11,102 nucleotides of DNA, taken from positions 1 to 11,102 of the forward strand of contig JBCCFQ010000052.1 of assembly GCA_039029655.1 (NCBI GenBank). The letters run 5' to 3'. Numbering within the stretch: the stretch's first letter is position 1; every line of letters starts with the position of its first letter. The translations under genes and the position numbers were made by a program. A model generated the notes under the pieces. It was not told the origin of the DNA, made no database searches, and saw only the letters and a list, made by a program, of their open reading frames with translations. Of the stretch, positions 1 to 10,177 are shown in pieces. This DNA comes from Pseudomonadota bacterium. Lineage in GTDB: Bacteria > Pseudomonadota > Gammaproteobacteria > Steroidobacterales > JBCCFQ01.

Positions 1-105
1 CTGGGGTGTTGGCGTGCAGCCAACATCCTGGCTTTCAGTTTAGTAGCCGGCGGGCGAACGACATACGGCAGGCGGCTGTAATTCTCACGGCCGCTTGCCA
101 CCTTC

Positions 106-180
106 GCTGCGGTAGCTCAATGACAGAGCATCGGATTGTCGATCCGAAAGATGTCGGTTCAAGTCCGATCCGCAGCGCCA
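106..180 (+). tRNA. tRNA-Asp (anticodon GTC), CCA encoded
   Basis: Folded by eye. The 7-bp acceptor GCTGCGG/CCGCAGC is perfect. D-stem is GCTC/GAGC. Anticodon stem TCGGA/TCCGA carries loop TTGTCGA. T-arm has a TTCAAGT loop. Discriminator G is followed by CCA. Confidence 0.85.
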
Positions 181-189
181 CACTTTTTT

Positions 190-265
190 GATCCGGTGGG
201 CGAATGGTTAAGCCACGAGGCCTTCAACCTCGTAATTGCAGGTTCAAATCCTGTTCGGATCGCCA
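190..265 (+). tRNA. tRNA-Glu (anticodon TTC), CCA encoded
   Basis: Acceptor GATCCGG/TCGGATC pairs with one G-T wobble. Anticodon stem CGAGG/CCTCG carries loop CCTTCAA. T-arm is GCAGG-TTCAAAT-CCTGT. Discriminator G is followed by CCA. Confidence 0.8.
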
Positions 266-291
266 CTTCAACTTGTCTTATGGAGGACATA

Positions 292-515
292 TGAACATCA
301 AAGATATTGTGAAACACAACACCGTTCGATTCGTTCGTTATCGCCAAGGAATCGCATACTACGGTGTCGACGTACCCAGCCAAGGCGCTTATGTATTTCC
401 AGTGCCACTAGAGGATATTGGCAGCGCCACCTTGGAACTAGAGGATAAAGCCATTCTGTTTATGCGTTATATCAAACGCGCACTGAGTGAAGGTTCGTTT
501 GTTCCGCTAACGTAA
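292..515 (+). CDS. hypothetical small protein (74 aa) embedded in the tRNA array
   Basis: ATG at 292 sits 5 nt after a strong Shine-Dalgarno GGAGGA (283-288). The ORF runs to TAA at 515 and ends 10 nt before tRNA-Ile. The upstream part of the tracked ORF 204..515 overlaps tRNA-Glu and is not credible. I recognise no homolog. Confidence 0.5.
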
Positions 516-525
516 GGTACCTTGT

Positions 526-601
526 AGACCGGTAGCTCAGCGAGTAGAGCGTGCGACTGATAATCGCGAGGTCGGCTGTGCAACTCAGCCTCGGTCTACC
601 A
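526..601 (+). tRNA. tRNA-Ile (anticodon GAT), CCA encoded
   Basis: Acceptor AGACCGG/TCGGTCT pairs fully. D-stem is GCTC/GAGC. Anticodon stem TGCGA/TCGCG carries loop CTGATAA, identical to E. coli tRNA-Ile. T-arm is GGCTG-TGCAACT-CAGCC. Discriminator A is followed by CCA. Confidence 0.8.
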
Positions 602-607
602 TTTTTT

Positions 608-685
608 CTGGGAGTAGCTCAGCTTGGTCAGAGTACTCGGTTTGGATCCGAGGGGTCGCTAGTTCGAATCTAGCCTTCCAGACCA
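608..685 (+). tRNA. tRNA-Pro (anticodon TGG), CCA encoded
   Basis: Acceptor CTGGGAG/CTTCCAG pairs fully. D-arm is GCTC...GAGT. Anticodon stem CTCGG/CCGAG carries loop TTTGGAT. T-arm is GCTAG-TTCGAAT-CTAGC. Discriminator A is followed by CCA. Confidence 0.85.
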
Positions 686-694
686 CACACTTTT

Positions 695-782
695 GGAGAC
701 TCGCAAGGTTGGCGTGCTTAGCCGGTTTGAACCCGGTGATGTCTTAACGGATGTGGGAGTTCGATCCTCTCAGTCTCCGCCA
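695..782 (+). tRNA. tRNA-Ser (anticodon TGA), type II with long variable arm, CCA encoded
   Basis: The gene is 88 nt. Acceptor GGAGACT/AGTCTCC is perfect. Anticodon stem GCCGG/CCGGT carries loop TTTGAAC. T-arm is GGGAG-TTCGATC-CTCTC. A ~17-nt variable region is present. I could not resolve the D-arm and variable-arm pairing by eye. Confidence 0.7.
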
Positions 783-789
783 AAACTAT

Positions 790-866
790 GGTGTTCGTAG
801 CTTAATTGGCAAAGCCCCAGTCTGTGAAGCTGGCAAATGTCGGTTCAAATCCGTCCGTTCACCCCA
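790..866 (+). tRNA. tRNA-His (anticodon GTG) with extra 5' G(-1); acceptor stem carries two T-T mismatches
   Basis: D-arm is GCTT-AATTGGCA-AAGC. Anticodon stem CCAGT/GCTGG carries loop CTGTGAA. The 3' end ACC-CCA and a G at -1 match the His tRNA pattern. Acceptor GTGTTCG/CGTTCAC has two T-T mispairs and the T-stem has one mismatch. The gene may be degenerate. Confidence 0.55.
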
Positions 867-874
867 ATTCACTA

Positions 875-962
875 GGAGAAGTGGCCGAGTGGCTAAAGGC
901 GCTCGTTTGCTAAACGAGAGAGGCATAGTCTCACCCAAGTTCGAATCTTGGCTTCTCCGCCA
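875..962 (+). tRNA. tRNA-Ser (anticodon GCT), type II, CCA encoded
   Basis: The gene is 88 nt. Acceptor GGAGAAG/CTTCTCC is perfect. D-stem is GCC/GGC. Anticodon stem CTCGT/ACGAG carries loop TTGCTAA. A long variable arm is present. T-arm is CCAAG-TTCGAAT-CTTGG. Discriminator G is followed by CCA. Confidence 0.85.
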
Positions 963-968
963 ACTTCA

Positions 969-1046
969 CTGTCCGTAGCTCAGTTGGATCAGAGCAGCTG
1001 GTTTCGACCCAGCCGGTCGGGAGTTCGAGTCTCTCCGGGCAGTCCA
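969..1046 (+). tRNA. tRNA-Arg (anticodon TCG), CCA encoded
   Basis: Acceptor CTGTCCG/CGGGCAG pairs with one wobble. D-stem is GCTC/GAGC. Anticodon stem GCTGG/CCAGC carries loop TTTCGAC. T-arm is GGGAG-TTCGAGT-CTCTC. Discriminator T is followed by CCA. Confidence 0.85.
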
Positions 1047-1054
1047 TTCAAAAT

Positions 1055-1130
1055 GCGGGCATAGCTCAATTGGCAGAGCACGACGGCGCCACCGTCGGGG
1101 TTGTGGTCTCAGCCTCCACTGCCCGCACCA
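1055..1130 (+). tRNA. tRNA-Gly (anticodon GCC), non-canonical T-loop and C33
   Basis: Acceptor GCGGGCA/TGCCCGC is perfect. D-stem is GCTC/GAGC. Anticodon stem CGACG/CGTCG carries loop GCGCCAC, with C at position 33 instead of U. The T-arm region GTGGT-CTCAGCC-TCCAC lacks the TTC motif. Discriminator A is followed by CCA. Confidence 0.55.
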
Positions 1131-1135
1131 ACTAC

Positions 1136-1206
1136 AGAGAGGGAGGTGGTCTCAGACAGGGCTCATAACCCCGTTTTCGCTGGTTCGAATCCAGCCCTCT
1201 CAACCA
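1136..1206 (+). tRNA. tRNA-Met-like (anticodon CAT) with initiator-type anticodon stem and truncated D-arm; possibly degenerate
   Basis: The anticodon arm GGGCTCATAACCC is identical to the E. coli initiator tRNA-fMet anticodon stem-loop, with its three G-C pairs. T-arm GCTGG-TTCGAAT-CCAGC is perfect. The acceptor shows 6/7 pairs with an A1-A72 mismatch and an ACCA end. Only 14 nt lie between the acceptor and the anticodon stem, so a normal D-arm is absent. A GTC-TCA-GAC mini-hairpin sits there instead. Confidence 0.4.
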
Positions 1207-1209
1207 GAT

Positions 1210-1286
1210 TGTCTGATAGCTCAGTTGGTCAGAGCGCTGCTTTTACACAGCAGAGGTCGTCGGTTCGAATCCGACTCGGACAACCA
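1210..1286 (+). tRNA. tRNA-Val (anticodon TAC), CCA encoded
   Basis: Acceptor TGTCTGA/TCGGACA pairs with one wobble. D-stem is GCTC/GAGC. Anticodon stem CTGCT/AGCAG carries loop TTTACAC. T-arm is GTCGG-TTCGAAT-CCGAC. Discriminator A is followed by CCA. Confidence 0.85.
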
Positions 1287-1394
1287 ATGTTGAGATGTTC
1301 ATAGCGTTCAGCGGTTCGGGTTCGGATCCCGTCTGGCGCACTTACGCTGTCATTGTACGGTGTGTACCGAACGCCCTTCACACTCAACCGCCAA

Positions 1395-1467
1395 TGGAAA
1401 TTAGCTCAGTTGGTTAGAGCATCAGACTGAAATTCTGAAGTCGCCAGTTCGATTCTGGCATTTCCCA
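1395..1467 (+). tRNA. tRNA-Phe (anticodon GAA), no encoded CCA
   Basis: D-arm is GCTC-AGTTGGTTA-GAGC. Anticodon stem TCAGA/TCTGA carries loop CTGAAAT. T-arm is GCCAG-TTCGATT-CTGGC. Acceptor GGAAAT/ATTTCC has a T-C mismatch at the 1:72 position. Discriminator A is followed by ACA rather than CCA. Confidence 0.65.
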
Positions 1468-1838
1468 ACAATGTCCTTCCAAGGCATCTAGGTAAAGGCC
1501 AAAAGCCTGCGGTTCAAATCCGCCCTTAGGCGAGGGTATCGCCCCATCCGCACTCACCGTCGGCTGACACCGAATTGGCTCAGCCAGTTTGGTGGTGGCA
1601 GGCAACTGACCGCCGATGGGTGTGTTGTCGTGTTGATCCGGTGGCTTGTCCTTCGAAGTTCCGTCCGAAGTTTGTTCATGAGACTCAGTCTCAAAAAACC
1701 TAGGACCAAGCTTTGGAAGCACGAACCGCCCGATCATCCGACACCATTTGTCCGCTGTCACTTGTGACGGTGAGTGCTCCATTTTCAAAACAGTTTCAAA
1801 CCAATCAGTCTTCAACCAAAAAAGGAGGTGATCCAATC

Positions 1839-3125
1839 ATGGCTGGTCTTAGGCGACTAGCAGAACTTGAGCGACAAATAACGGCGCGACGGACCAGCCA
1901 ATCTTTGGCATTGGGCCCATCTAGCCCAAGCCCTCACAAACGCCCGTCCCAGGACGGAATATCAAATCACGAAGGAGAACGCAGTATGTTCTATCAAAAA
2001 TTCATCGTGCGTAAGCACGAACGCGGTCTCCTGTTTAAGGACGGAGACTTCATCAAATTTCTTGAACCAGGTACGTATCGTTACATTGGTTTGGGTAATC
2101 GTTACAACGTCGAACGCTACGACCTTTCCGTTGCCGCGTTTGAACACCGCTTGAAGGATTTCTTGATTCAAGCGGAACGTGACGAAATCGATCGCTTGTT
2201 CACTCTGGTTGAAACACGCAGCGAGGAAGTTGCGTTGGTGTACCTGAATGAGCGTGTTGCCACGGTACTGGCCCCGGCAGAGCGCAAGCTTTACTGGAAG
2301 GGTGTAGTGAATGTGCGTGTTGAGCGCTTTGACCTCAATGAGGGCATTGCTTTGAACGCCCGTTTGACCAAACACCTTATCAATGGTCGAGACGCGAAGG
2401 TGTTGTCGACTGCTGAAAAGGCGATCTACGCCCGTATCGTTCCTGAAGGTCATGTGGGTTTGCTTTATGTGGACGGTGAGCTTGCCGAAACGCTACAAGC
2501 CGGCCTACACGCTTACTGGAACGTAGCCCACACGGTTAGCGTGGAACTGGTGGATCTTCGTGTCAAAGCGTTGGAAGTTCAAGGTCAAGAAATCTTGACC
2601 AAAGATAAGGTGGCGCTACGTATTAACGTTACTGCGACCTACCAATACTTGGACGCTGCAAAAGCACTACGTGCTGTGAAAGATCCACTGGATCAACTGT
2701 ATAAGGAAATTCAGTTCGGCCTTCGTGCAGCCGTTGGCACCCGTAAGCTGGACGCATTGCTTGAGGACAAAACAGCGATTGACCACGACATCGCTGAACA
2801 CCTGGGTAAGCGTTTCGCTGATATCGGCATCAGCGTTAAGAGCGTGGGTGTCAAAGACATCATCCTACCTGGTGATATGAAGGATCTTCTGGGTAAGGTG
2901 GTGGAAGCCGAAAAAGCGGCACAAGCGAATGTTATTCGTCGCCGCGAAGAAACCAATGCGACTCGTTCATTGCTAAACACCGCGAAAGTGATGGAAAGCA
3001 ACACAGTTGCATTGCGTCTAAAAGAGCTAGAGACCCTAGAAAAGGTTACCGAAAACGTAGGCAACCTATCTGTCGTGGGTGGTCTCGACGCTTTGCTGGA
3101 TGGACTGGTTAAGATTAAGCAGTAG
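1839..3125 (+). CDS. SPFH/band-7 domain protein (stomatin/slipin/HflKC-like membrane-associated protein)
   Basis: The ORF is long and has no competing frames. ATG at 1839 is preceded by AAAGGAGGTGA with 9-nt spacing. An alternative start at ATG 1986 also has a good RBS (GAAGGAGA) and would drop a low-complexity Pro/Ser-rich N-terminal extension. After residue ~50 the product shows a typical slipin N-terminus (FIVRKHERGLLFKDGDFIKFLEPGTYRY). The C-terminal half is a coiled-coil Ala/Glu/Lys-rich region typical of band-7 proteins. Stop is TAG at 3125. Confidence 0.88.
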   Translation: MAGLRRLAELERQITARRTSQSLALGPSSPSPHKRPSQDGISNHEGERSMFYQKFIVRKHERGLLFKDGDFIKFLEPGTYRYIGLGNRYNVERYDLSVAAFEHRLKDFLIQAERDEIDRLFTLVETRSEEVALVYLNERVATVLAPAERKLYWKGVVNVRVERFDLNEGIALNARLTKHLINGRDAKVLSTAEKAIYARIVPEGHVGLLYVDGELAETLQAGLHAYWNVAHTVSVELVDLRVKALEVQGQEILTKDKVALRINVTATYQYLDAAKALRAVKDPLDQLYKEIQFGLRAAVGTRKLDALLEDKTAIDHDIAEHLGKRFADIGISVKSVGVKDIILPGDMKDLLGKVVEAEKAAQANVIRRREETNATRSLLNTAKVMESNTVALRLKELETLEKVTENVGNLSVVGGLDALLDGLVKIKQ

Positions 3126-3136
3126 TTCAGCCCATG

Positions 3137-3174
3137 GAGGGTGTGCAACGCACCCTCCAACTTTCAAATTTTTC
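3137..3174 (+). terminator. probable rho-independent terminator after the SPFH gene
   Basis: A GC-rich hairpin GGAGGGTG-(TGCAACG)-CACCCTCC with an 8-9 bp stem is followed by a T-rich tract (CTTTCAAATTTTT). The T-run lies a little far from the stem, so confidence is moderate. Confidence 0.5.
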
Positions 3175-3175
3175 G

Positions 3176-3252
3176 ACGGCTGTAGCTCAGTGGATAGGAG
3201 CGCGACATTGCGAAAGTCGAGGTCACAAGTTCAACTCTTGTCAGCCGTACCA
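3176..3252 (+). tRNA. tRNA-Arg-like (anticodon probably GCG); A-A mismatch closes anticodon stem
   Basis: Acceptor ACGGCTG/CAGCCGT is perfect. D-stem is GCTC/GAGC. T-arm is ACAAG-TTCAACT-CTTGT. Discriminator A is followed by CCA. The anticodon stem CGAC(A)/(A)GTCG has an A-A mismatch next to the loop. This gives an effective 9-nt loop ATTGCGAAA, so the anticodon assignment (GCG) is tentative. Confidence 0.6.
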
Positions 3253-3259
3253 ATTCAAT

Positions 3260-3333
3260 TCGGTGCTGGTCTAAAGGCAGGACGCGAGACTTTGATTCTC
3301 GAGGTCGTGGTTCGAGTCCACGGCGCCGATCCA
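3260..3333 (+). tRNA. tRNA-Gln (anticodon TTG), CCA encoded
   Basis: Acceptor TCGGTGC/GCGCCGA pairs with one wobble. D-stem is GTCT/GGAC. Anticodon stem CGAGA/TCTCG carries loop CTTTGAT. T-arm is CGTGG-TTCGAGT-CCACG. Discriminator T is followed by CCA. Confidence 0.8.
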
Positions 3334-3351
3334 AATACGGGTCCAACTATT

Positions 3352-3484
3352 GGTGCCGTGGATCTCGATACTCAGCGATGTACTAAAGATCAATCCGCAC
3401 CTACCGTCCACAAAACAGATGCCATGCGGGCGGATTGGGTTGCAACCCTTGTTTAACTCAGTTCAATTCTGAGCGGCATCTCCA
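3352..3484 (+). tRNA. candidate interrupted tRNA (133 nt) carrying a ~58-nt insert; isotype undetermined
   Basis: The 3' part is a textbook tRNA end: T-arm CTCAG-TTCAATT-CTGAG, acceptor strand CGGCATC, discriminator T, CCA. The only upstream 7-mer that pairs 7/7 with this acceptor strand is GGTGCCG at 3352-3358, which includes one G-T. It is followed by a TG at positions 8 and 9. The conserved repeat element (3382-3439) lies between these ends. Removing it leaves 30+45=75 nt. I could not fold a canonical D-arm or anticodon arm by eye, so the call is tentative. Confidence 0.4.
3382..3439 (+). repeat. copy 1 of a repeated ~58-60-nt structured element (ACTAAAGATCAATCCGCACC ... GCGGGCGGATTGGG)
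   Basis: The 20-nt 5' block and 14-nt 3' block are identical to copy 2. An internal 8-bp inverted repeat CAATCCGC/GCGGATTG is separated by a ~30-nt partially conserved spacer (ACAAAA...ATG). Confidence 0.65.
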
Positions 3485-3486
3485 AC

Positions 3487-3562
3487 ACCCTCGTAGCTCA
3501 ATTGTCAGAGCACCGGGTTTTTACCCCGGTGGTTGTAAGTTCGAATCTTACCGGGGGTACCA
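3487..3562 (+). tRNA. tRNA-Lys (anticodon TTT), CCA encoded
   Basis: Acceptor ACCCTCG/CGGGGGT pairs with one wobble. D-arm is GCTC-AATTGTCA-GAGC. Anticodon stem CCGGG/CCCGG carries loop TTTTTAC. T-arm is GTAAG-TTCGAAT-CTTAC. Discriminator A is followed by CCA. Confidence 0.85.
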
Positions 3563-3601
3563 ATTCTCGTTGTCGCAAGGATTTAACGACTTATCTAATT
3601 C

Positions 3602-3655
3602 ACCCTTATAGCTCAATGGACGAGAGCGCCGAGTTTCTTGGCAAGGTTCTCGGCT
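3602..3655 (+). pseudogene. tRNA-like 5' fragment (acceptor strand + canonical D-arm + aberrant anticodon-like arm) with no matching 3' half
   Basis: ACCCTTA-TA-GCTC-AATGGACGA-GAGC is a canonical 5' acceptor strand and D-arm. It is followed by a 6-bp stem GCCGAG/CTCGGC enclosing a 15-16 nt loop instead of a 7-nt anticodon loop. No downstream T-arm or acceptor strand pairs with it. The repeat element copy 2 follows. Confidence 0.3.
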
Positions 3656-3677
3656 CATCAATCTTTTTTGAAGAAGC

Positions 3678-3737
3678 ACTAAAGATCAATCCGCACCCAG
3701 TGTTATGGAACAAAAATGACAAGGCGGGCGGATTGGG
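3678..3737 (+). repeat. copy 2 of the repeated ~58-60-nt structured element
   Basis: It shares ACTAAAGATCAATCCGCACC (3678-3697) and GCGGGCGGATTGGG (3724-3737) with copy 1. It has the same internal inverted repeat CAATCCGC/GCGGATTG. Confidence 0.65.
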
Positions 3738-3745
3738 GTACCAAC

Positions 3746-3822
3746 GCGGATCTGAAGGGAATGGCATACCTCGGTGGTTTAAACCCATTGGCTTCCCAGT
3801 TCGAATCTGGGGGTCCGCACCA
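3746..3822 (+). tRNA. non-canonical type-I tRNA with Leu anticodon TAA (short variable arm, 3-bp D-stem), CCA encoded
   Basis: Acceptor GCGGATC/GGTCCGC pairs with one wobble. T-arm CCCAG-TTCGAAT-CTGGG is perfect. Discriminator A is followed by CCA. Anticodon stem GGTGG/CCATT has two G-T pairs and carries loop TTTAAAC. The variable region is only 5 nt, although Leu tRNAs in bacteria and phages are normally type II. The gene shares the 5' motif CTGAAGGGAA..GCATACCT with the tRNA at 3947. Confidence 0.55.
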
Positions 3823-3824
3823 AA

Positions 3825-3904
3825 GCGCAGCTGACGGAAATTGGAAAAGCCTTTAGTACCTAAAACCTACTCGTTTCCGCGTTCGAATCGCGGGCTGCGC
3901 ACCA
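3825..3904 (+). tRNA. tRNA-like gene with perfect acceptor and T-arm but non-canonical D/anticodon arms (anticodon arm = 4-bp stem + 9-nt loop CCTAAAACC)
   Basis: Acceptor GCGCAGC/GCTGCGC is perfect. T-arm CCGCG-TTCGAAT-CGCGG is perfect. Discriminator A is followed by CCA. Only AGTA/TACT can close an anticodon-like loop, and that loop is 9 nt. I found no clean D-stem. Confidence 0.45.
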
Positions 3905-3946
3905 TTTTCAAATCGATACCCCACCAGGTTGCGGGTAACTCATCTT

Positions 3947-4024
3947 GGCCGTCTGAAGGGAACAGGCATACCTACCTGTCTTAGAAACGGGTGTTTCTCG
4001 GTTCGACTCCGAGGGCGGCTACCA
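3947..4024 (+). tRNA. non-canonical type-I tRNA with Leu anticodon TAG (short variable arm, 3-bp D-stem), CCA encoded
   Basis: Acceptor GGCCGTC/GGCGGCT pairs with two wobbles. T-arm CTCGG-TTCGACT-CCGAG is perfect. Discriminator A is followed by CCA. Anticodon stem CCTGT/ACGGG carries loop CTTAGAA. The variable region is 5 nt. The gene is a paralog of the tRNA at 3746. Confidence 0.55.
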
Positions 4025-4340
4025 AATTAGGGCACGTTGGCAAATGGACGCCGCCACTGAAAACGTTTAGTTGATAGTGGTCCGGATAAAACCGGTCTTG
4101 TTCTTAAGTAAATGCGAGAGCACGGTTGAAGATGGCAGGCGACTGCTCTGGGTAAAGGTTACTCGCTGGCGCCCGTTTCCAATCTCGCATTCTGCCGGTA
4201 GTAATGCATCGGTTACAGCGGTATGCGGGTTCGCCTGCGATGTGCAGGGATGCACAAGTGTCGCGTAGGACAGGATGTCCGAGAGCGACCCGTCTCCACC
4301 AAAATCTTACACAATCCACATGTTTTCCGGGGAAAGAAAA

Positions 4341-4907
4341 ATGACAATGAGAATTCTAAAATTAGATGTAGGCGGACGTCCTATCGCGTGGATTACACGG
4401 GAAGATGGGGCGCTGTTGTATTGCCGTGACCAGGTAGCATGGGAAGCGGGTGTTGAGGAAGCCATATTACGAGGCGGATACTCCCGTCGCACTGGACTGC
4501 GTTCAACGCTTCGGGTGAACTCAATTCTTGCCACAACGTCCGTGGACAAAGGCGCGGACGATTGGGCAGGTACCCCGGCACTGACCAACGCCCGTCTTTT
4601 TCGCAGAGATGATTACATGTGCCTGTACTGTGGCGAGGTATTGTCGCCGCGACTGCTTACACGTGATCACATCATTCCGGTCTCTGGCGGAGGCAAGGAT
4701 GAATGGGAAAACGTCGTGACGGCATGCCGACCCTGCAATCATCGCAAAGACAACGGTCGTCTTGAGGATATTGGAATGAGGCTACTGGCCGTTCCCTACG
4801 CACCCAATCGTGCGGAAGGACTAATTTTGGAAAATCGTCGTATCCTTAACGATCAAATGGAGTTTTTAAGGGCTCGAGTTGGCACAAAAAGTCGGCTGCG
4901 AGTTTAG
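4341..4907 (+). CDS. HNH-family endonuclease (N-terminal domain + C-terminal HNH nuclease motif)
   Basis: The ORF 4275..4907 has a likely start at ATG 4341, preceded by GGGGAAAG. In-frame ATGs at 4275 and 4320 are alternatives. The C-terminus carries a classic HNH signature: CLYCG...RDHIIPVSGGGKDEWENVVTACRPCNHRK. Stop is TAG at 4907. Confidence 0.85.
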   Translation: MTMRILKLDVGGRPIAWITREDGALLYCRDQVAWEAGVEEAILRGGYSRRTGLRSTLRVNSILATTSVDKGADDWAGTPALTNARLFRRDDYMCLYCGEVLSPRLLTRDHIIPVSGGGKDEWENVVTACRPCNHRKDNGRLEDIGMRLLAVPYAPNRAEGLILENRRILNDQMEFLRARVGTKSRLRV

Positions 4908-4924
4908 TAAATAGAGGAAGCATC

Positions 4925-6334
4925 ATGTCTTACTTACAACAAGTTGAAAAAGTATCAGAAGCACACTACGTGTTGCCCAAGATTGGCGACATGCGTGTCG
5001 AGGTGCACGCCTATCTATCAGATACTTTGTTCGCACAAACCGATGAAGCCTTGTGGCGTCAAGCGGCACAAGCCGCCGCCTATCCTGGGATGCTGGGTCT
5101 GTATCTTATGCCGGATACTCACCTTGGCTATGGTATTCCCGTGGGTGGCGTGGCAGTTACCGAAGACGTGATCATTCAAGCCGGTAGTGGTTACGACATC
5201 TCTTGTGGTGTTGTCTATCTCAAAGTGCCAGGCCTAACGGCTGTAGACATTGCCGATTGGGACAAGCGTCGACGCTGGATTGATGATGTTGAGTTGCGAA
5301 TCGCGACCGGCGTCGGTAGCCACCGTCCCAAGCATATGCCCACCCTATCGGATAAGAAGATTGAGGATATCTTCCGATACGGTGCTCAGGCTATTGGAGT
5401 TCGTGCCGATGTTTGTGAACGTCAGTACATTCCAGTGGATGAATCTGCTCTTGATACCGATCGAATCAAACGGGCGCGAGATAAAGCAAACCCGCAAATT
5501 GGTTCGGTGGGTGGTGGTAACCACTTCGTTGAGATGCAGGTTGATGTCAACGACGGCTCAGTATGGGTGATGATTCATTGCGGCAGTCGCGGTTATGGTT
5601 GGCAAACGGCCAACCACTACTTCTATCAAGGTGCGGAACATCGCGGCCTAGCGAAGAACCGCCGTGAAGAGTCTTGGTTGCGGGCAGATGAACCCTTGGG
5701 TCGTGAATACTGGGCCCATCATAACTCTGCCGCCAACTATGCTGTGGCCAACCGACACATCATTGTGCGGGGTGTGCAAAAGGCTTTGGAGAACGTCTTC
5801 AATGCTAGGGGTGAAGTTTTCTATGAAATTTCACACAACCTGGTGCAAGAAGAAACCTTAGTTCTGCCCGATGGCACCACCAAGAAAGGTTTTGTTCATC
5901 GCAAAGGCGCTACCCGCGCGTTTCCGGCTGGACACCCAGACTTGGTGGGTACCAAATGGGAAAAAACAGGTCATCCATGCCTAGTACCTGGCTCCATGTT
6001 GGACGGTGCCGCTATTTTGTATCCGCTGAAAGGCGCGTACCAATCAGGTTGTTCGGTGAATCATGGTTCAGGCCGAGTCATGGCGCGTGGTAAGGCTAAG
6101 CGAGAGCTTGCCGACAAGCACGACGACATCGATGCCGAAATGCGTTATATCAAGCGCACACTAGGTGGTGTGGAGGTACAAGGCATTGTGGGTAACACCC
6201 GTCGTACACCGCTGGACGAATGCGGTCACGTTTATAAGGACTTAGATGAGGTGCTGCGAGTTCTGGAAACAGAAGGGATCGCCAAAGTAGCAAACCGGCT
6301 ATACCCGGTTGCCAACATCAAGGGCACCGACTAA
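4925..6334 (+). CDS. rtcB: RtcB-family RNA 3'-phosphate/2',3'-cyclic phosphate to 5'-OH ligase
   Basis: The ORF is 469 aa. The RBS GAGGAAG lies 4 nt before ATG 4925. Conserved RtcB metal and GTP-binding blocks are present: MPDTHLGYGIPVGGV, GSGYDISCGV, GGGNHFVE, HCGSRGYG, SHNL and HRKGATRA. Confidence 0.93.
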   Translation: MSYLQQVEKVSEAHYVLPKIGDMRVEVHAYLSDTLFAQTDEALWRQAAQAAAYPGMLGLYLMPDTHLGYGIPVGGVAVTEDVIIQAGSGYDISCGVVYLKVPGLTAVDIADWDKRRRWIDDVELRIATGVGSHRPKHMPTLSDKKIEDIFRYGAQAIGVRADVCERQYIPVDESALDTDRIKRARDKANPQIGSVGGGNHFVEMQVDVNDGSVWVMIHCGSRGYGWQTANHYFYQGAEHRGLAKNRREESWLRADEPLGREYWAHHNSAANYAVANRHIIVRGVQKALENVFNARGEVFYEISHNLVQEETLVLPDGTTKKGFVHRKGATRAFPAGHPDLVGTKWEKTGHPCLVPGSMLDGAAILYPLKGAYQSGCSVNHGSGRVMARGKAKRELADKHDDIDAEMRYIKRTLGGVEVQGIVGNTRRTPLDECGHVYKDLDEVLRVLETEGIAKVANRLYPVANIKGTD

Positions 6335-6347
6335 GGTGCCCTTTTTT
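6322..6347 (+). terminator. rho-independent terminator of the rtcB gene
   Basis: A perfect 7-bp stem GGGCACC/GGTGCCC with loop GACTAA overlaps the TAA stop. It is followed immediately by TTTTTT. Confidence 0.8.
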
Positions 6348-6552
6348 GTGGAGTGAGCTCTGCCATTGTTAAAAGACGCCTATTCGCCCAGTTTAAAGGG
6401 ACGGCGTACTTCATAAGCGTAGACAGTGCCTACGCCAAACCATCCGTGCTACTCGTGAGGGAGCTCTATCAGAAGAGTAATCCAATCGCTCTTGACTCCG
6501 CGCCATCATCGCGTCAGGCTTCTCCGCTCCACTGACTACAGGCAAAGATGCC

Positions 6553-6909
6553 ATGACAGCCCACGTTGCGAGCCTTATCAATGCTGCCCTACTCATCACC
6601 ATGTCGGCATGGGGCTATTTTTCGTCGGGTAATCCCTCTTTTACGGCCTTGATTCCCGGTGTGGTGGGGGTATTGCTGCTGGCTTGCTACAAAGGTGTCA
6701 AGGAACAAAACAAAATAGTGGCGCACATCGCGGTCCTGCTGACACTGTTGATCCTTATTGCGTTGTTTATGCCTTTAAAAGGCGCCATTGGACGAGACGA
6801 CTCCGCGGCTATCCTGCGGGTATCGATCATGCTGGCCAGCACCGTGGTCGCGTTGGTTTTTTTCATTAAGAGTTTCATCGACGCTCGAAAAAACAGGCCC
6901 CAGACTTAA
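6553..6909 (+). CDS. small integral membrane protein (about 4 predicted TM helices), function unknown
   Basis: The 118-aa ORF has four hydrophobic stretches: LINAALLITMSAWGYF, LIPGVVGVLLLACY, IAVLLTLLILIALFMPL and ILRVSIMLASTVVALVFFI. The RBS is weak. An internal ATG at 6601 is an alternative start. Confidence 0.55.
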   Translation: MTAHVASLINAALLITMSAWGYFSSGNPSFTALIPGVVGVLLLACYKGVKEQNKIVAHIAVLLTLLILIALFMPLKGAIGRDDSAAILRVSIMLASTVVALVFFIKSFIDARKNRPQT

Positions 6910-6959
6910 ATCCAAACCTTGCACCCCGATAAAGTCGTCGTAGCCTAAAACTGGCCGTT

Positions 6960-9149
6960 ATGGACCGTGTAGAAATCGTTCACCAGAACTTTCGGACTCG
7001 CCTCGCCGCTGAAGACTTCCCGCCAGGTGTTTCGCCTAAATTCAAGCTACTCAGCACCACTGAGGCGGTTAGTCTGTTTCACGCACAGGTGCTGAGCCGT
7101 CAGCTTGATCGCATCAGTCGCATGATGCAAAAATCGGGACAAGGCTTCTACACCATTGGGTCGTCCGGGCACGAAGGTATGGCGGCAGTTGCCCACGCCC
7201 TGCGACCCACGGACATCGCGTTTCTTCACTATCGTGATGCGGCGTTCCAGATCGCTCGCGCCAATCAGGTGCCGGGGCAGACTATGGCCTGGGATATGCT
7301 ACTTTCCTTTGCCTGTTCATCTGAGGATCCAACAAGTGGCGGCCGTCACAAGGTGTTGGGGTCTCGTACTCTGATGATCCCACCCCAAACTTCTACCATT
7401 GCCAGCCATCTACCCAAATCAGTGGGTATGGCTTTTGCCATTGGCGCCTGTCGTCACCGGAAACCAGAGCACCAATTGGTTTTCGACGACGCGGTCGCTT
7501 TTTGCAGTTTTGGCGACGCTTCGTTAAATCACTCAACGGCTCAAGGTGCGATAAACACCGCTTGTTGGTCATCCATCCAATCAACACCACTGCCTTTGCT
7601 CTTTGTTTGCGAGGACAACGGCATAGGCATATCCACCAAGACGCCAAAGGGATGGGTTCAGGATTCTCTCCAAGACCGTCCGGGTCTAAGGTACTTCTTC
7701 GCAGACGGACTCAATTTTTACGATACCTATCAGGTAACCAAACAGGCGGCGGAATTTGTACGTCGACTCAGAAAACCCGCGGTCATACATCTTAGAACGG
7801 TGCGTCTTTACGGCCATGCGGGTGCAGATTTAGCCACGTCTTATTTGCCAAAATCTGAAGTGGAGGCCGATGAAGCCAACGACCCATTACTTCATTCGGC
7901 GCGTCTTCTCGTGGAGAACCAGGCGTTGACCAGTGCTGATGCGCTAAAGATCTATGATGAAACAGAAGCGCGTTTACAGCGAATACGGACCCATGTGTCA
8001 ATCAGACCTCACCTCAGCTGTGCAGCTGAGGTCATGCACAGTTTGATTCCACCAAAACGCAACTGCCAGACCATCAAAGCAAAAACCGCCGATGAAAGAT
8101 CCACCGCGTTCGGCAATGACTGGCGCAGCATTGATCAACCCCAACCTATGGCCCGACTGATCAACTTCGCGCTAACGGACCTCATGTTGCAGCACCAAGA
8201 AATCACCTTGATGGGTGAAGATGTGGGGCGAAAAGGCGGCGTGTATGGCGTCACCCAAAAATTGTCTCATCGATTCGGGTCGGGCCGCATCATCGATACT
8301 CTGTTAGATGAACAGTCTATTCTCGGACTGGCCATCGGAATGGGTCAGAACGGTTTTCTACCCATTCCTGAAATTCAGTTCCTAGCCTATTTACACAACG
8401 CGGAAGATCAGCTTCGTGGGGAAGCAGCAACGCTGCCGTTTTTTTCCAACGGACAGTTTGCCAACCCCATGGTGATTCGAATTGCCGGATTGGGCTATCA
8501 AAAAGGCTTTGGCGGTCACTTCCACAACGACAATTCTTTGGCGGTGCTGCGAGACATCCCGGGGCTGGTCATCGCCTGCCCATCAAACGGGATAGATGCG
8601 GCTAAGATGTTAAGGGAGTGTGTGCGACTGGCTAGAGAAGAACAGCGGGTGGTGGTTTTCCTAGAGCCAATCGCACTTTACTCAGCAAGAGACTTGCACG
8701 AGGAGAAGGACGGACAATGGATGGGCGTATACCCCGAGCCAAACGAAACTTTACGATTGGGTGAGGTGGGTGTTCATGGTGACGGTGAGCTGGCAATTAT
8801 CAGCTATGCCAATGGTTACTACTTGTCTCGTCAAGCTCAGACTAATCTCTTACAACAAGGCATCAACACAAAGCTGATTGATCTACGTTGGCTGGCACCG
8901 TTACCTGTGGAAAACCTGTTGGACTCTCTAAGAGGGTGTGATCAGGTACTCATTGTGGATGAATGCCGCCGGACCGGTAGTCAATCGGAAGCGATCATGT
9001 CTTTGTTATACGAACAGGGGCTTCGAAGCCTGGCTCGGGTCACTGCCGAGGACAGCTTTATCGCCACGGGGCCCGCCTATGCCGCGCCCTTGCCATCTGT
9101 AGAGAAAATTATAGACGCGGCTCACCGTCTTTGTGGGGATGGATTGTGA
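6960..9149 (+). CDS. thiamine-diphosphate-dependent 2-oxoacid dehydrogenase E1 component, fused alpha/beta subunits (transketolase-like)
   Basis: The ORF is 729 aa. The N-terminal half has the E1-alpha TPP-binding motif (FGDAS...N...FVCEDNGIGIST, compare GDG...NN..YAIS). The C-terminal half has the E1-beta start (MGEDVGRKGGVYGVTQKL...GSGRIIDTLLDEQS...PEIQF) and a transketolase C-terminal-like region. Confidence 0.88.
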   Translation: MDRVEIVHQNFRTRLAAEDFPPGVSPKFKLLSTTEAVSLFHAQVLSRQLDRISRMMQKSGQGFYTIGSSGHEGMAAVAHALRPTDIAFLHYRDAAFQIARANQVPGQTMAWDMLLSFACSSEDPTSGGRHKVLGSRTLMIPPQTSTIASHLPKSVGMAFAIGACRHRKPEHQLVFDDAVAFCSFGDASLNHSTAQGAINTACWSSIQSTPLPLLFVCEDNGIGISTKTPKGWVQDSLQDRPGLRYFFADGLNFYDTYQVTKQAAEFVRRLRKPAVIHLRTVRLYGHAGADLATSYLPKSEVEADEANDPLLHSARLLVENQALTSADALKIYDETEARLQRIRTHVSIRPHLSCAAEVMHSLIPPKRNCQTIKAKTADERSTAFGNDWRSIDQPQPMARLINFALTDLMLQHQEITLMGEDVGRKGGVYGVTQKLSHRFGSGRIIDTLLDEQSILGLAIGMGQNGFLPIPEIQFLAYLHNAEDQLRGEAATLPFFSNGQFANPMVIRIAGLGYQKGFGGHFHNDNSLAVLRDIPGLVIACPSNGIDAAKMLRECVRLAREEQRVVVFLEPIALYSARDLHEEKDGQWMGVYPEPNETLRLGEVGVHGDGELAIISYANGYYLSRQAQTNLLQQGINTKLIDLRWLAPLPVENLLDSLRGCDQVLIVDECRRTGSQSEAIMSLLYEQGLRSLARVTAEDSFIATGPAYAAPLPSVEKIIDAAHRLCGDGL

Positions 9150-10177
9150 CGCGAACAGCGGTCGTAATTTGTCCAGGACGGGGAACTTACAATAAGGATG
9201 AACTTGGTTATCTAGGACGACACCACAGTGACAAAGCAACGCTTTTTCAGGCCTTTGACGCCATTCGATCCGAAAACCAACAGGAATCCATCATCGCACT
9301 AGATGGTGCCGACCGATTTTCTCTACAAAAACACACTCGAGGGGATATAGCGTCTCCTTTAATCTATGCAGCGTCCGTGGCCGATACCAGCACCCTATCC
9401 GATGACATTGAGATTGTTGCCGTTACCGGCAACTCGATGGGTTGGTACATCGCCCTAGCAGCGGGCGGTGCCGCAGAAAAAACCGACGGTTTTCGCATCG
9501 TCAATACCATGGGTGATCTGATGCAACAACAGTTGATCGGCGGCCAGATCATTTATCCGTTTGTTGATGACGCATGGGCTCCTATTGCCGGCAAAAAGAA
9601 AGCGTTGCTGGAATGCGTTGATGAAATCAACAACCACTCCGACCATAGCCTTGCCTTATCCATAGACCTTGGTGGCATGCTGGTCATTGCGGGCAATGAA
9701 GCTGGACTAAAAGCCTTTGAGAAAAGCGTACCGCAATTGCAGAATCGATTTCCCATGCGGCTACCCAACCACGCTGCATTCCATACTGAGTTACAAACAC
9801 CCGTGGCGAAACTGGGGCAAGGATTGCTGCCTGTGACCCTATTTTCCCAACCAAAGTACCCGCTTATCGATGGCCGTGGTCATGTTTGGTGGCCCAACGC
9901 CACCGACGTGGAGTCGCTACGAAACTACACCCTTGACCATCAAGTCCGAAAAACGTATGGATTTAGCCAAGCCATCCAAACGGCAGCACGGGAATTCGCG
10001 CCAGATTTGTTCATCGTCACGGGTCCCGGCACCACACTGGGAGGTGCTGTTGCCCAGTCCTTACTGCTTATCGACTGGCAAAACATGAAGACCAAGCAAG
10101 ACTTTCAGACAAGACAACAGCAAGATCCGTTTCTTATCTCCATGGGCATCCCGGAACAGCGAAGTCTCGTGACCTAA
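9146..10177 (+). CDS. acyltransferase-domain protein, malonyl-CoA:ACP transacylase (FabD)-like
   Basis: The N-terminus VVICPGRGTY resembles FabD FxFPGQGSQ. The active-site-like block GNSMGWYIALAAGG resembles GHSLGEYSALVAAG. The likely start GTG 9146 follows GGGGA and forms a GTGA overlap with the E1 stop, indicating translational coupling. An alternative ATG lies at 9131 inside the E1 gene. Confidence 0.8.
   Translation: MTRTAVVICPGRGTYNKDELGYLGRHHSDKATLFQAFDAIRSENQQESIIALDGADRFSLQKHTRGDIASPLIYAASVADTSTLSDDIEIVAVTGNSMGWYIALAAGGAAEKTDGFRIVNTMGDLMQQQLIGGQIIYPFVDDAWAPIAGKKKALLECVDEINNHSDHSLALSIDLGGMLVIAGNEAGLKAFEKSVPQLQNRFPMRLPNHAAFHTELQTPVAKLGQGLLPVTLFSQPKYPLIDGRGHVWWPNATDVESLRNYTLDHQVRKTYGFSQAIQTAAREFAPDLFIVTGPGTTLGGAVAQSLLLIDWQNMKTKQDFQTRQQQDPFLISMGIPEQRSLVT

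Follow-up and report, generated by a model that had tools for sequence, protein, structure and literature searches.

Long same-strand arrays of transfer RNA (tRNA) genes, termed L-arrays, spread by horizontal gene transfer and have HNH and rtcB genes as neighbours; in Anabaena, translational stress induces them (Santamaria-Gomez et al. 2021, PMC8421152). In that organism, the repressor TrcR controls, among others, the trn operon, the HNH gene all8564, the RtcB gene all3526 and the slipin gene alr0740 (PMC10272220). The tRNA array unit is a related concept, defined as at least 20 tRNA genes at a density of at least 2 per kb (Tran et al. 2016, PMC4758250), and mycobacterial arrays carry a GOLLD RNA and an HNH gene (Behra et al. 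2019, PMC6582537). GOLLD forms RNA cages near tRNA islands (PMC12286853), and induction of the Salmonella RNA repair operon by tRNA damage or translational stress has been proposed (as cited in PMC10272220). Here we analyse contig JBCCFQ010000052.1 of GCA_039029655.1, a metagenome-assembled genome (MAG) of a gammaproteobacterium in the Steroidobacterales. The window is this whole 11.1-kb contig (11,102 nucleotides), and it holds a dense tRNA array, cut by the left contig end, together with genes for a slipin, an HNH endonuclease and the RNA ligase RtcB.

Our best explanation is that the locus is a long tRNA array of the L-array or tRNA array unit kind, spread horizontally, which is conserved among marine Gammaproteobacteria resembling Woeseiaceae and which serves as a stress-induced back-up and repair kit. 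To this statement as a whole we give a probability of roughly 0.7. That the locus is an L-type tRNA array operon is, in our judgement, very likely, and for the stress back-up and repair function, which would follow by analogy, we see about even odds. The operon encodes a near-complete spare tRNA set with built-in CCA ends. A stress function is suggested because a regulon of Anabaena sp. PCC 7120 that translational stress de-represses comprises the same elements (array, HNH, RtcB and slipin) and because of the leader architecture in relatives of the locus. Under this proposal, the operon would normally be silent and would be switched on when translation is impaired, for instance by phage attack, by toxins that cleave tRNAs or by antibiotics that target the ribosome. 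The long transcript would then be cut into replacement tRNAs by RNase P and 3' processing, RtcB would re-seal cleaved tRNAs or ribosomal RNA, and the HNH nuclease would help the cassette persist or spread.

Gene content and layout of the locus

ARAGORN identified 16 tRNA genes in the window, all on the + strand. Ten of them are in block A (106-1467: Asp-GTC, Glu-TTC, Ile-GAT, Pro-TGG, Ser-TGA, His-GTG, Ser-GCT, Arg-TCG, Val-TAC and a nominal Phe-GAA) and six in block B (3176-4024: Arg-GCG, Gln-TTG, Lys-TTT, Leu-TAA, a nominal Phe-AAA and Leu-TAG). Twelve of the 16 were also found by Rfam at 53-71 bits (threshold 29), with Leu-TAG at 32.3 bits and a weak extra tRNA at 1140-1203 (29.6 bits). Homology to relatives adds two conserved non-canonical tRNAs (Gly-GCC and Met-CAT), which bring block A to 12 genes, and two broken genes (Cys-GCA and an Arg-TCT-like gene), with which block B counts eight. 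The initial annotation, made from the sequence alone, had proposed 12 tRNA genes and 8 tRNA or tRNA-like genes with a protein gene between the blocks; both counts are borne out, and the protein gene encodes a slipin, a membrane-scaffold protein of the SPFH type. Its list of amino acids is right overall, except that the supposed tRNA-Phe at the end of block A is a tRNA-like element with a variable anticodon, called X below, rather than a secure tRNA-Phe. The tight packing it described also stands, with spacers of 3-9 nt rather than 5-10 nt and with several larger gaps: 260 nt (holding an open reading frame, ORF, of 74 codons), 108 nt (holding a conserved structured RNA) and, in block B, 153, 183 and 42 nt. 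Overall density is 4.1 tRNA genes per kb (16 in 3.9 kb), and block A has its 12 genes in 1.36 kb. The order of tRNAs is non-repetitive and the array is not periodic. CCA is encoded at the 3' end of every canonical member, and many of the array tRNAs begin with A, C or U, not G.

Positions 1-6350 probably represent the downstream two-thirds of one + strand operon, because the genes lie on one strand, no + strand promoter-like site was found within 1-7000, and a strong intrinsic terminator stands at the RtcB stop codon. The order is GOLLD-type RNA tail, tRNAs, 74-amino-acid ORF, tRNAs, slipin, tRNAs, HNH, RtcB and terminator. RtcB matches Pyrococcus horikoshii RtcB over its full length and is 87-95% identical to its counterparts in the relatives. 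The residues aligned to Asp95, Cys98, Asn202, His203, His234, His329 and His404, which we take to be the catalytic residues of RtcB, are all conserved, and the active site appears intact. A look-up for proteins exactly matching this RtcB gave no result. The slipin, kept at the same position in relatives (62-88% identity), has an N-terminal domain of about 150 amino acids without assigned function. For the 74-amino-acid protein we found 228 homologues, none of them named; its AlphaFold2 model has a pLDDT of 90.5, but the best match in PDB (E 0.24, TM score below 0.5) is not a significant fold match. NCBIfam has no specific family for the slipin, for this small protein or for a 308-amino-acid ORF of the relatives, and PADLOC gave generic HNH matches only, with none for the slipin, RtcB or the small ORF. 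Beyond 6350, the genes are ordinary chromosomal ones, namely a fused E1 dehydrogenase (6960-9149), an acyltransferase-like protein and a rhombotarget lipoprotein.

Relatives, mobility and rival explanations

Relatives were collected by a protein search with RtcB, keeping one genome per species, and are designated by locus number (L019, L021 and so on). RtcB at 87-95% identity occurs at about 20 loci, almost all of them from Woeseiaceae or unclassified gammaproteobacterial MAGs, with several complete chromosomes among them. The cassette has the same order in about 20 genomes: a helix-turn-helix (HTH) gene, tRNAs, 74-amino-acid ORF, tRNAs, slipin, tRNAs, HNH and RtcB, and the arrays hold between 4 and 29 genes. 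Those with the most tRNAs (L021, L029, L035 and L089; 24-29) read Thr-Tyr-Phe-Asn-Ala, a large RNA, Asp-Glu and the 74-amino-acid ORF, followed by Ile-Pro-(Gly)-Ser-His-Ser-Arg-Lys-Gly-Met-Val, the tRNA-like RNA TLE-1, X and the slipin, and then by Arg-Gln-Trp-Cys-Ile(TAT)-Arg(TCT)-Leu x4, HNH and RtcB. The Thr-Tyr-Phe-Asn-Ala block and a leader thus lie upstream of the point at which the window starts. Homology to the window runs from position 1 and stops at 6343-6353 in every relative. A second type of array stands ahead of the same X-slipin backbone in L019, L020, L025 and L096.

The leader of the relatives (L021 3600-3935; also in L029, L089, L020, L030 and L033) comprises, in order, an XRE-like HTH gene, an invariant promoter-like TTGACAG-N17-TATACT of the sigma-70 type, an ORF of about 60 codons, hairpins and an invariant intrinsic terminator, and it looks like a translation-sensing attenuator. 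In L033, RtcB follows directly on the leader and a short GOLLD-5'-like element, and tRNAs are absent. We conclude that the leader is that of RtcB and that the arrays were apparently inserted between leader and gene.

The array is old and its RNA genes are under strong purifying selection, because they are far better conserved than four-fold degenerate sites over the same distance. Between the window and five relatives, the four-fold degenerate sites of RtcB and slipin are 32-43% identical, which is near saturation, whereas the canonical tRNAs are 85-97% identical to those of relatives, Gly-GCC 92-93% and the initiator-like Met 87-90%. Anticodons are unchanged across relatives in all canonical members. 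The earlier description of the array as rapidly evolving is thus mostly wrong. It had been drawn from the degenerate members, but the oddities of block A are conserved in relatives, and true decay is confined to block B.

In nearly all genomes that were examined, the cassette occupies a chromosomal site of its own. Most loci have downstream sequences with no relation to one another, and upstream only about 900 bp (the HTH gene and leader) are common, beyond which lie unrelated housekeeping genes including LysR, SDR, IDO, TetR and MFS. Of the genomes with 88-93% identical RtcB, some have the array and others lack it; L033 and L036, for example (RtcB 88-90% identical), have no tRNAs nearby. On a TARA scaffold, a slipin 87% identical to that of the window lies with an array 75 kb from the orthologue (73%) of the E1 dehydrogenase, which adjoins the cassette in the window. 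The complete chromosome of L021 carries the cassette within an island of 14.5 kb, at whose borders stand direct repeats of 58 nt (98% identical) that correspond to the 3' part of tRNA-Phe, and a tyrosine integrase (Phage_integrase) adjoins the intact host tRNA-Phe. A degenerate third repeat in mid-island suggests that the island is composite. Patchy presence, differing flanks, the relocation seen in the TARA scaffold and the integrase island of L021 together uphold the initial view of an accessory mobile tRNA array unit distinct from a housekeeping operon. The checks that accompanied that view had mixed outcomes. Integrase and att repeats are there in L021, and the att core of L021 was not found in the window, whose left end is missing. 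The host tRNA-Phe of L021 is only 80% identical to the array's own tRNA-Phe, a divergence in the direction foreseen, for a single gene. No contrast in guanine-plus-cytosine (GC) content was seen between the island side (0.518) and the other side (0.515).

The initial annotation had seen in such arrays a mark of phage genomes as well as of mobile units. A phage remnant or cargo, for example of a huge phage, in which the tRNAs suit the codon usage of the phage or make up for host tRNAs that anti-phage anticodon nucleases destroy, and RtcB is a counter-defence ligase, is nevertheless unlikely. RtcB relatives at 60-72% identity do occur on IMG/VR contigs of 130-620 kb (huge phage), two of them with large tRNA arrays within a few kb, and the 74-amino-acid ORF and HNH match PHROG families. 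GOLLD RNAs and tRNA islands are moreover typical of phages and prophages (PMC12286853), and tRNA array units have been discussed as anti-defence elements (PMC12803027). But the closest relatives of RtcB (87-95%) are all on bacterial chromosomes, the GC content equals that of the flanking chromosome, and the signs of long-term purifying selection fall within one bacterial lineage. Neither in the window (Pfam, PHROGs) nor in the flanks of 10 kb inspected in relatives was a phage structural, packaging or lysis gene found. With the whole window as query, megablast gave no match in 50,697 phage records nor in plasmid records, and exact conserved motifs of the array (from TLE-1 and TLE-3) are absent from IMG/VR. 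A phage origin is thus not shown. The slipin has only one distant viral relative (46% identity, no tRNAs nearby), and no relative of the E1 dehydrogenase was found in IMG/VR.

It is improbable, too, that the array is a selfish, functionless passenger spread by its HNH homing endonuclease or by an integrase, with the window copy becoming a pseudogene cluster. Spread alone does not keep cloverleaves and anticodons, and here identity reaches 76-97% for the tRNAs and tRNA-like RNAs against saturation at neutral sites, canonical anticodons are kept, RtcB is highly conserved with an apparently intact active site, and the leader is invariant. What speaks for a passenger is the loss and breakage of genes in block B with its insertions of a hairpin element, the T-loop insertions in two tRNA genes and the additional 2-kb insertion of L025, the wide range of array sizes among relatives, and the fact that published L-arrays were long regarded as cryptic (PMC8421152).

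An ordinary core tRNA operon of the species would also be chromosomal, share the GC content of its surroundings and be conserved in many related genomes. This explanation is very improbable, as L033 and L036 lack the array, L021 has a separate canonical tRNA-Phe that differs clearly from the array copy, many members start with A, C or U, the Leu tRNAs have no long variable arm, several members are non-canonical or broken, and flanks differ between genomes. An assembly or binning artefact with a wrong join at about 6350 has hardly any probability left either: although this is a short MAG contig in which homology to all relatives ends at 6343-6353 and the E1 dehydrogenase past the junction has named homologues in Roseobacter-group bacteria, the junction is a natural operon end marked by a terminator, relatives on long contigs and complete chromosomes change context there too, GC content is identical on both sides, and the TARA scaffold carries both the slipin with array and the E1 dehydrogenase, so that both halves belong to one lineage.

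Several points weigh against the back-up and repair kit that we prefer. The regulation and repair roles would be borrowed from a cyanobacterium, whose TrcR is a ribbon-helix-helix protein and thus of another family than the HTH protein here. The promoter and leader lie beyond the left contig end, so co-transcription of the window copy is inferred. Compared with relatives, block B of the window lacks Trp, Ile-TAT and Leu-CAG and has damaged Cys, Arg-TCT-like and Leu-CAA genes, and with block B partly broken the window copy may be losing function. Regarding mobility, integrase and att repeats come from one relative only, none having been found in the eight other relatives examined, and the relatives are so diverged that lost flanking synteny alone proves no mobility. 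As to the array being additional to the host's own set, tRNA-Phe of L021 is the only host housekeeping tRNA compared.

Some further observations concern RtcB and the flanking gene. In L089, RtcB is interrupted by about 2.6 kb after codon ~170 (~7404-10016); NCBIfam lists intein-containing RtcB families, and the interruption may be an intein or another insertion. In Myxococcota MAGs with RtcB at 70-72% identity, small clusters of unusual tRNA genes, most of them without encoded CCA, lie directly upstream of it (L047 9555-9717; L050 906-1157; L055 116-697). The linkage of RtcB with tRNA genes is therefore wider than the gammaproteobacterial cassette. At six distant RtcB loci without arrays (L045, L046, L048, L064, L083 and L087), a slipin homologue of 43-50% identity lies within a few kb, which suggests that the association of RtcB with slipin is independent of the array. 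The E1 dehydrogenase, a fused alpha/beta protein, has its named homologues (71-73%) in Roseobacter-group Alphaproteobacteria, while the relatives of the cassette are gammaproteobacterial; it may be a gene exchanged between marine lineages. All features of the locus are given in Table 1.

Table 1. Features of the tRNA array locus, by position in the window.
Start	End	Strand	Feature	Evidence
1	105	+	3' tail of conserved ~360-nt RNA (GOLLD 5'-domain-like)	Alignment with L089, L059, L081, L021, L029; 81-83% identity
106	180	+	tRNA-Asp (GTC), CCA encoded	ARAGORN; Rfam 69.5 bits; 93-97% identity to orthologues
190	265	+	tRNA-Glu (TTC), CCA encoded	ARAGORN; Rfam 59.9 bits; 97% identity to orthologues
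291	515	+	Conserved 74-amino-acid protein inside array	phrog_20427, E 7e-13; 79-88% identity, same position in relatives
526	601	+	tRNA-Ile (GAT)	ARAGORN; Rfam 57 bits; 91-95% identity to orthologues
608	685	+	tRNA-Pro (TGG)	ARAGORN; Rfam 60.6 bits; 85-91% identity to orthologues
695	782	+	tRNA-Ser (TGA), long variable arm	ARAGORN; 89-92% identity to orthologues
791	866	+	tRNA-His (GTG), most divergent canonical member	ARAGORN; Rfam 53.1 bits
875	962	+	tRNA-Ser (GCT), long variable arm	ARAGORN; Rfam 59.9 bits; orthologue comparison
969	1046	+	tRNA-Arg (TCG)	ARAGORN; Rfam 58 bits; 85-97% identity to orthologues
1055	1130	+	Non-canonical tRNA-Gly (GCC)	92-93% identity to genes called in L021, L081, L089
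1136	1206	+	Initiator-like tRNA-Met (CAT)	Rfam 29.6 bits; 87-90% identity to Met-CAT called in L059, L089
1210	1286	+	tRNA-Val (TAC)	ARAGORN; Rfam 71.3 bits; 87-90% identity to orthologues
1289	1393	+	TLE-1, conserved tRNA-like RNA, ~105 nt	RNAalifold, 12 relatives: 34 pairs, 4 with compensatory changes
1395	1467	+	X, tRNA-like, conserved body, hypervariable anticodon (GAA here)	ARAGORN; Rfam 66.3 bits; alignments and counts
1468	1560	+	TLE-2, conserved element after X: T-arm-like hairpin (GCGGTTCAAATCCGC) and terminal hairpin	Alignment and RNAalifold; 63-73% identity to relatives
1986	3125	+	Slipin/SPFH (Band 7) protein, 379 amino acids	Pfam Band_7 1.8e-29; NCBI name 'slipin family protein'; PDB matches PH stomatin, human stomatin
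3176	3252	+	tRNA-Arg (GCG)	ARAGORN; Rfam 60.8 bits; orthologue comparison
3260	3333	+	tRNA-Gln (TTG)	ARAGORN; Rfam 56.3 bits; orthologue comparison
3352	3484	+	Broken tRNA-Cys (GCA)	Local alignment to L089 Cys 39/46 (3' half); block alignment, repeats, fold
3487	3562	+	tRNA-Lys (TTT), origin ambiguous	ARAGORN; Rfam 71.3 bits; nearest relatives a mix of Lys and Arg-TCT genes
3602	3743	+	Broken Arg-TCT-like gene	Alignments, repeats, fold
3746	3822	+	tRNA-Leu (TAA), short variable arm, 77 nt, A73, CCA	ARAGORN cloverleaf; 83-88% identity to orthologues
3825	3904	+	Decayed tRNA-Leu (CAA), mis-called 'Phe-AAA'; anticodon arm damaged	3' half 95-100% identical to relatives' Leu-CAA; no Rfam match
3947	4024	+	tRNA-Leu (TAG), short variable arm, 78 nt	ARAGORN; Rfam 32.3 bits; 95-99% identity to orthologues
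4030	4249	+	TLE-3, tRNA-like RNA, ~220 nt	RNAalifold with L020, L022, L025, L031: 70 pairs, 8 with compensatory changes
4275	4907	+	HNH endonuclease, 210 amino acids	Pfam HNH_5 / HNH; PHROG HNH families; 57-88% identity, same position in relatives
4925	6334	+	RtcB RNA 3'-phosphate ligase, long archaeal/eukaryal type, 469 amino acids	Pfam RtcB (PF01139) 300.7 bits, cut-off 27
6320	6343	+	Intrinsic terminator, 9-bp stem then TTTTTGT, overlapping the RtcB stop codon	Cassette end; homology to every relative stops at 6343-6353

Irregular tRNA genes and tRNA-like RNAs

Two members of block A are non-canonical. tRNA-Gly (GCC) has a T loop without the TTC motif and a C at position 33, and both oddities are kept in relatives; the window copy has one additional T-stem mismatch compared with them and was not called by ARAGORN or Rfam, the relatives' copies scoring 48-57 bits. 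As read from its sequence, the initiator-like tRNA-Met has a GGG/CCC run by the anticodon loop, is mismatched at 1x72 and has a D arm of reduced size. Compared with L089, block A of the window lacks Lys-TTT and Gly-TCC. The Leu tRNAs of the array (TAG, TAA, CAA and CAG; window 3746-3822 and 3947-4024; L021 9046-9369) are a tandem family of 77-79 nt. They are conserved as a family of four with A73, CCA and a variable arm that is short, unlike that of the normal bacterial class II tRNA-Leu. For tRNA-Lys (TTT) in block B, derivation from Arg-TCT by an anticodon shift was considered and is not claimed, its nearest neighbours being both Lys and Arg genes.

Real decay of the window copy is found only within 3334-3904. 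The broken Cys gene keeps its acceptor stem, anticodon, T arm and CCA, but in place of the D-arm region it has a ~60-nt hairpin element (3377-3445). In the Arg-TCT-like gene, the anticodon loop is enlarged and the T arm is replaced by a second copy of this element (3673-3741). A third copy is present in L025 (9078-9150). Between its conserved ends (ACTAAAGATCAATCCGCACC ... GCGGGCGGATTGGG) the element varies; it is located within broken tRNA genes and could be a miniature insertion element. In L025, tRNA-Arg(GCG) and tRNA-Gln (6437-6513 and 6593-6659) each carry an insertion of 65-80 nt at the same T-loop site, the first of which folds very stably (z = -5.1). We considered whether the hairpins and the T-loop insertions could be tRNA introns whose removal is assisted by RtcB. 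This reading was dropped because insertion sites differ between tRNAs, there is no splicing endonuclease and the affected genes look broken; we treat them as insertions instead.

The first 105 nt of the window are the end of a conserved RNA of about 360 nt, which in relatives sits between tRNA-Ala and tRNA-Asp and resembles the 5' domain of GOLLD. In its short form, found in the window, L089, L059 and L081, the 3' domain is replaced by a hairpin loop. L021 and L029 have an extra ~490 nt at this loop, and there Rfam recognises GOLLD (154.9 and 132.4 bits); the L021 copy, with an embedded tRNA, exceeds the threshold of 150 bits (E 3.5e-42). In the window, the 3' domain of GOLLD (Rfam RF02032) is absent, with no match at E <= 1, and the short form matched no Rfam family. 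The long forms lie at L021 4460-5359 and L029 4465-5366, and a short form at L033 9600-9960.

Three more conserved RNAs, labelled TLE-1 to TLE-3, accompany the tRNAs, and none of them matches an Rfam family. TLE-1 (76% identical to relatives) has an acceptor-type stem of 7 bp, a 3' end of discriminator base and CCA, a T-arm-like hairpin and a long inner helix, and it has no anticodon arm. TLE-3 combines the acceptor stem GGGCACG/CGTGTCC and a T arm with a large multi-helix insert; in the window copy, the 3' strand and CCA are damaged. It resembles a small molecule like transfer-messenger RNA (tmRNA), and its best Rfam match was permuted tmRNA at E 0.34.

The element X stands at a fixed position just upstream of the slipin in all relatives. 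Its homologues (loci L019-L096, L116, L119 and L127) have near-invariant arms, and X of the window is 82-91% identical to its relatives, the closest homologue being that of L059 (92%, anticodon CAT). The anticodon, in contrast, is the most variable three-column stretch inside the molecule: about 19 homologues have ten different anticodons, namely CAT (7), GTT (2), CAG (2), TGT (2) and then GAA, CTT, TCT, CAA, TGG and CGA. A37 and a 7-nt loop are kept, about half of the homologues have C33, there is a 1x72 mismatch, and just two encode CCA, which in the window is not cleanly encoded. A metagenome scan for X returned mostly ordinary tRNA-Arg genes and only four X homologues. We also asked whether X stands in for isoacceptors lost from the array, and rejected this, as in most cases its anticodon repeats one that the array already has. 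Anticodon variation like that of X is also seen in the tRNA-like insert of the GOLLD RNA.

On the simplest reading, X would be a tRNA-like element that is not used in decoding. A bolder proposal, which we regard as doubtful, is that beside the spare tRNAs the operon encodes a set of non-decoding tRNA-like RNAs (TLE-1, TLE-2, TLE-3, the tRNA embedded in GOLLD, and X), with the anticodon loop of X as a strain-specific specificity module. X is seen as such a module because it joins an Arg-type tRNA body and invariant A37 with so many different anticodons, often with C33. X might act as a bait or sponge for nucleases that attack anticodon loops, with RtcB from the same operon sensing or repairing the cut; another possibility is a tRNA that switches identity and so changes decoding during stress. 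Were the proposal of a non-decoding set true, the cassette would handle tRNA damage as a self-contained system, and its RNA component would be evolvable.

Comparison with described systems

The locus is an example of an L-array with unusually complete physical linkage to RtcB, slipin and HNH, in a compact cassette of about 8 kb. To our knowledge, long tRNA arrays are widespread and only that of Anabaena has been studied functionally. The present locus extends such arrays to Woeseiaceae-type bacteria, a group that is among the most abundant in marine sediments, and our literature search found no paper on such arrays in Woeseia. The conserved tRNA-like RNAs outside any Rfam family and the freely anticodon-varying X are undescribed leads for RNA biology.

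The RNA repair operon rsr-yrlBA-rtcBA of Salmonella and rtcBA of Escherichia coli resemble the locus in co-encoding RtcB with tRNA-like non-coding RNAs. Unlike these operons, the present locus has no RtcA, Rsr (Ro60) or RtcR, its RtcB is of the long archaeal type, and its RNAs are mostly real tRNAs. Matches to Y-RNA-like families were at chance level only (YrlA, E 0.079 in L021).

Large and huge phages have tRNA islands with GOLLD or ROOL (PMC12286853), which share with the locus dense tRNA clusters, large ornate RNAs, homing endonucleases and RtcB relatives near arrays. They differ in that the locus has no phage genes, a chromosomal setting and a cassette conserved within one bacterial lineage. 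Also comparable are the tRNA array units of Acidithiobacillus, Firmicutes and Mycobacterium (PMC4758250; Morgado & Vicente 2018, PMC5966550; PMC6582537), which have in common with it high density, redundant core isoacceptors, the rare Ile-TAT (in relatives), HNH between tRNA blocks, GOLLD with embedded pseudo-tRNA (in L021 and L029) and carriage on integrative elements. By the definition of at least 20 genes, the window with its 16-18 credible tRNAs falls short, being truncated by the contig end, and its syntenic relatives with 24-29 do not; its density lies above the 2 per kb of that definition. The differences from these units are the presence of RtcB and slipin in the operon and, in the window copy, the retention of only a GOLLD-type stump.

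Among the close known systems is also the L-array, with that of Anabaena PCC 7120 as its type case. Like it, the present array has many same-strand tRNA genes with short spacers, a patchy distribution and some non-canonical or pseudo-tRNAs, and it shows the single orientation, the spacing fit for co-transcription, the non-periodic order and the horizontal spread that characterise L-arrays. L-arrays are supernumerary to the housekeeping set, a trait for which the comparison here is with one host gene, the tRNA-Phe of L021 (80% identical). HNH and rtcB are nearby in both, and all four components that are co-regulated in Anabaena (array, HNH, RtcB and slipin) are present in the window. In contrast to Anabaena, the array here belongs to a gammaproteobacterium, relatives have an XRE-like HTH protein as upstream regulator and not a ribbon-helix-helix protein like TrcR, and the control region of relatives, known here from its sequence, looks like a leader-peptide attenuator. 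The four components are scattered over chromosome and plasmid in Anabaena, whereas here they apparently form one operon. Components that are merely co-regulated in Anabaena would thus be joined in a single transcription unit, which provides independent comparative evidence, from a distant phylum, that they work together.

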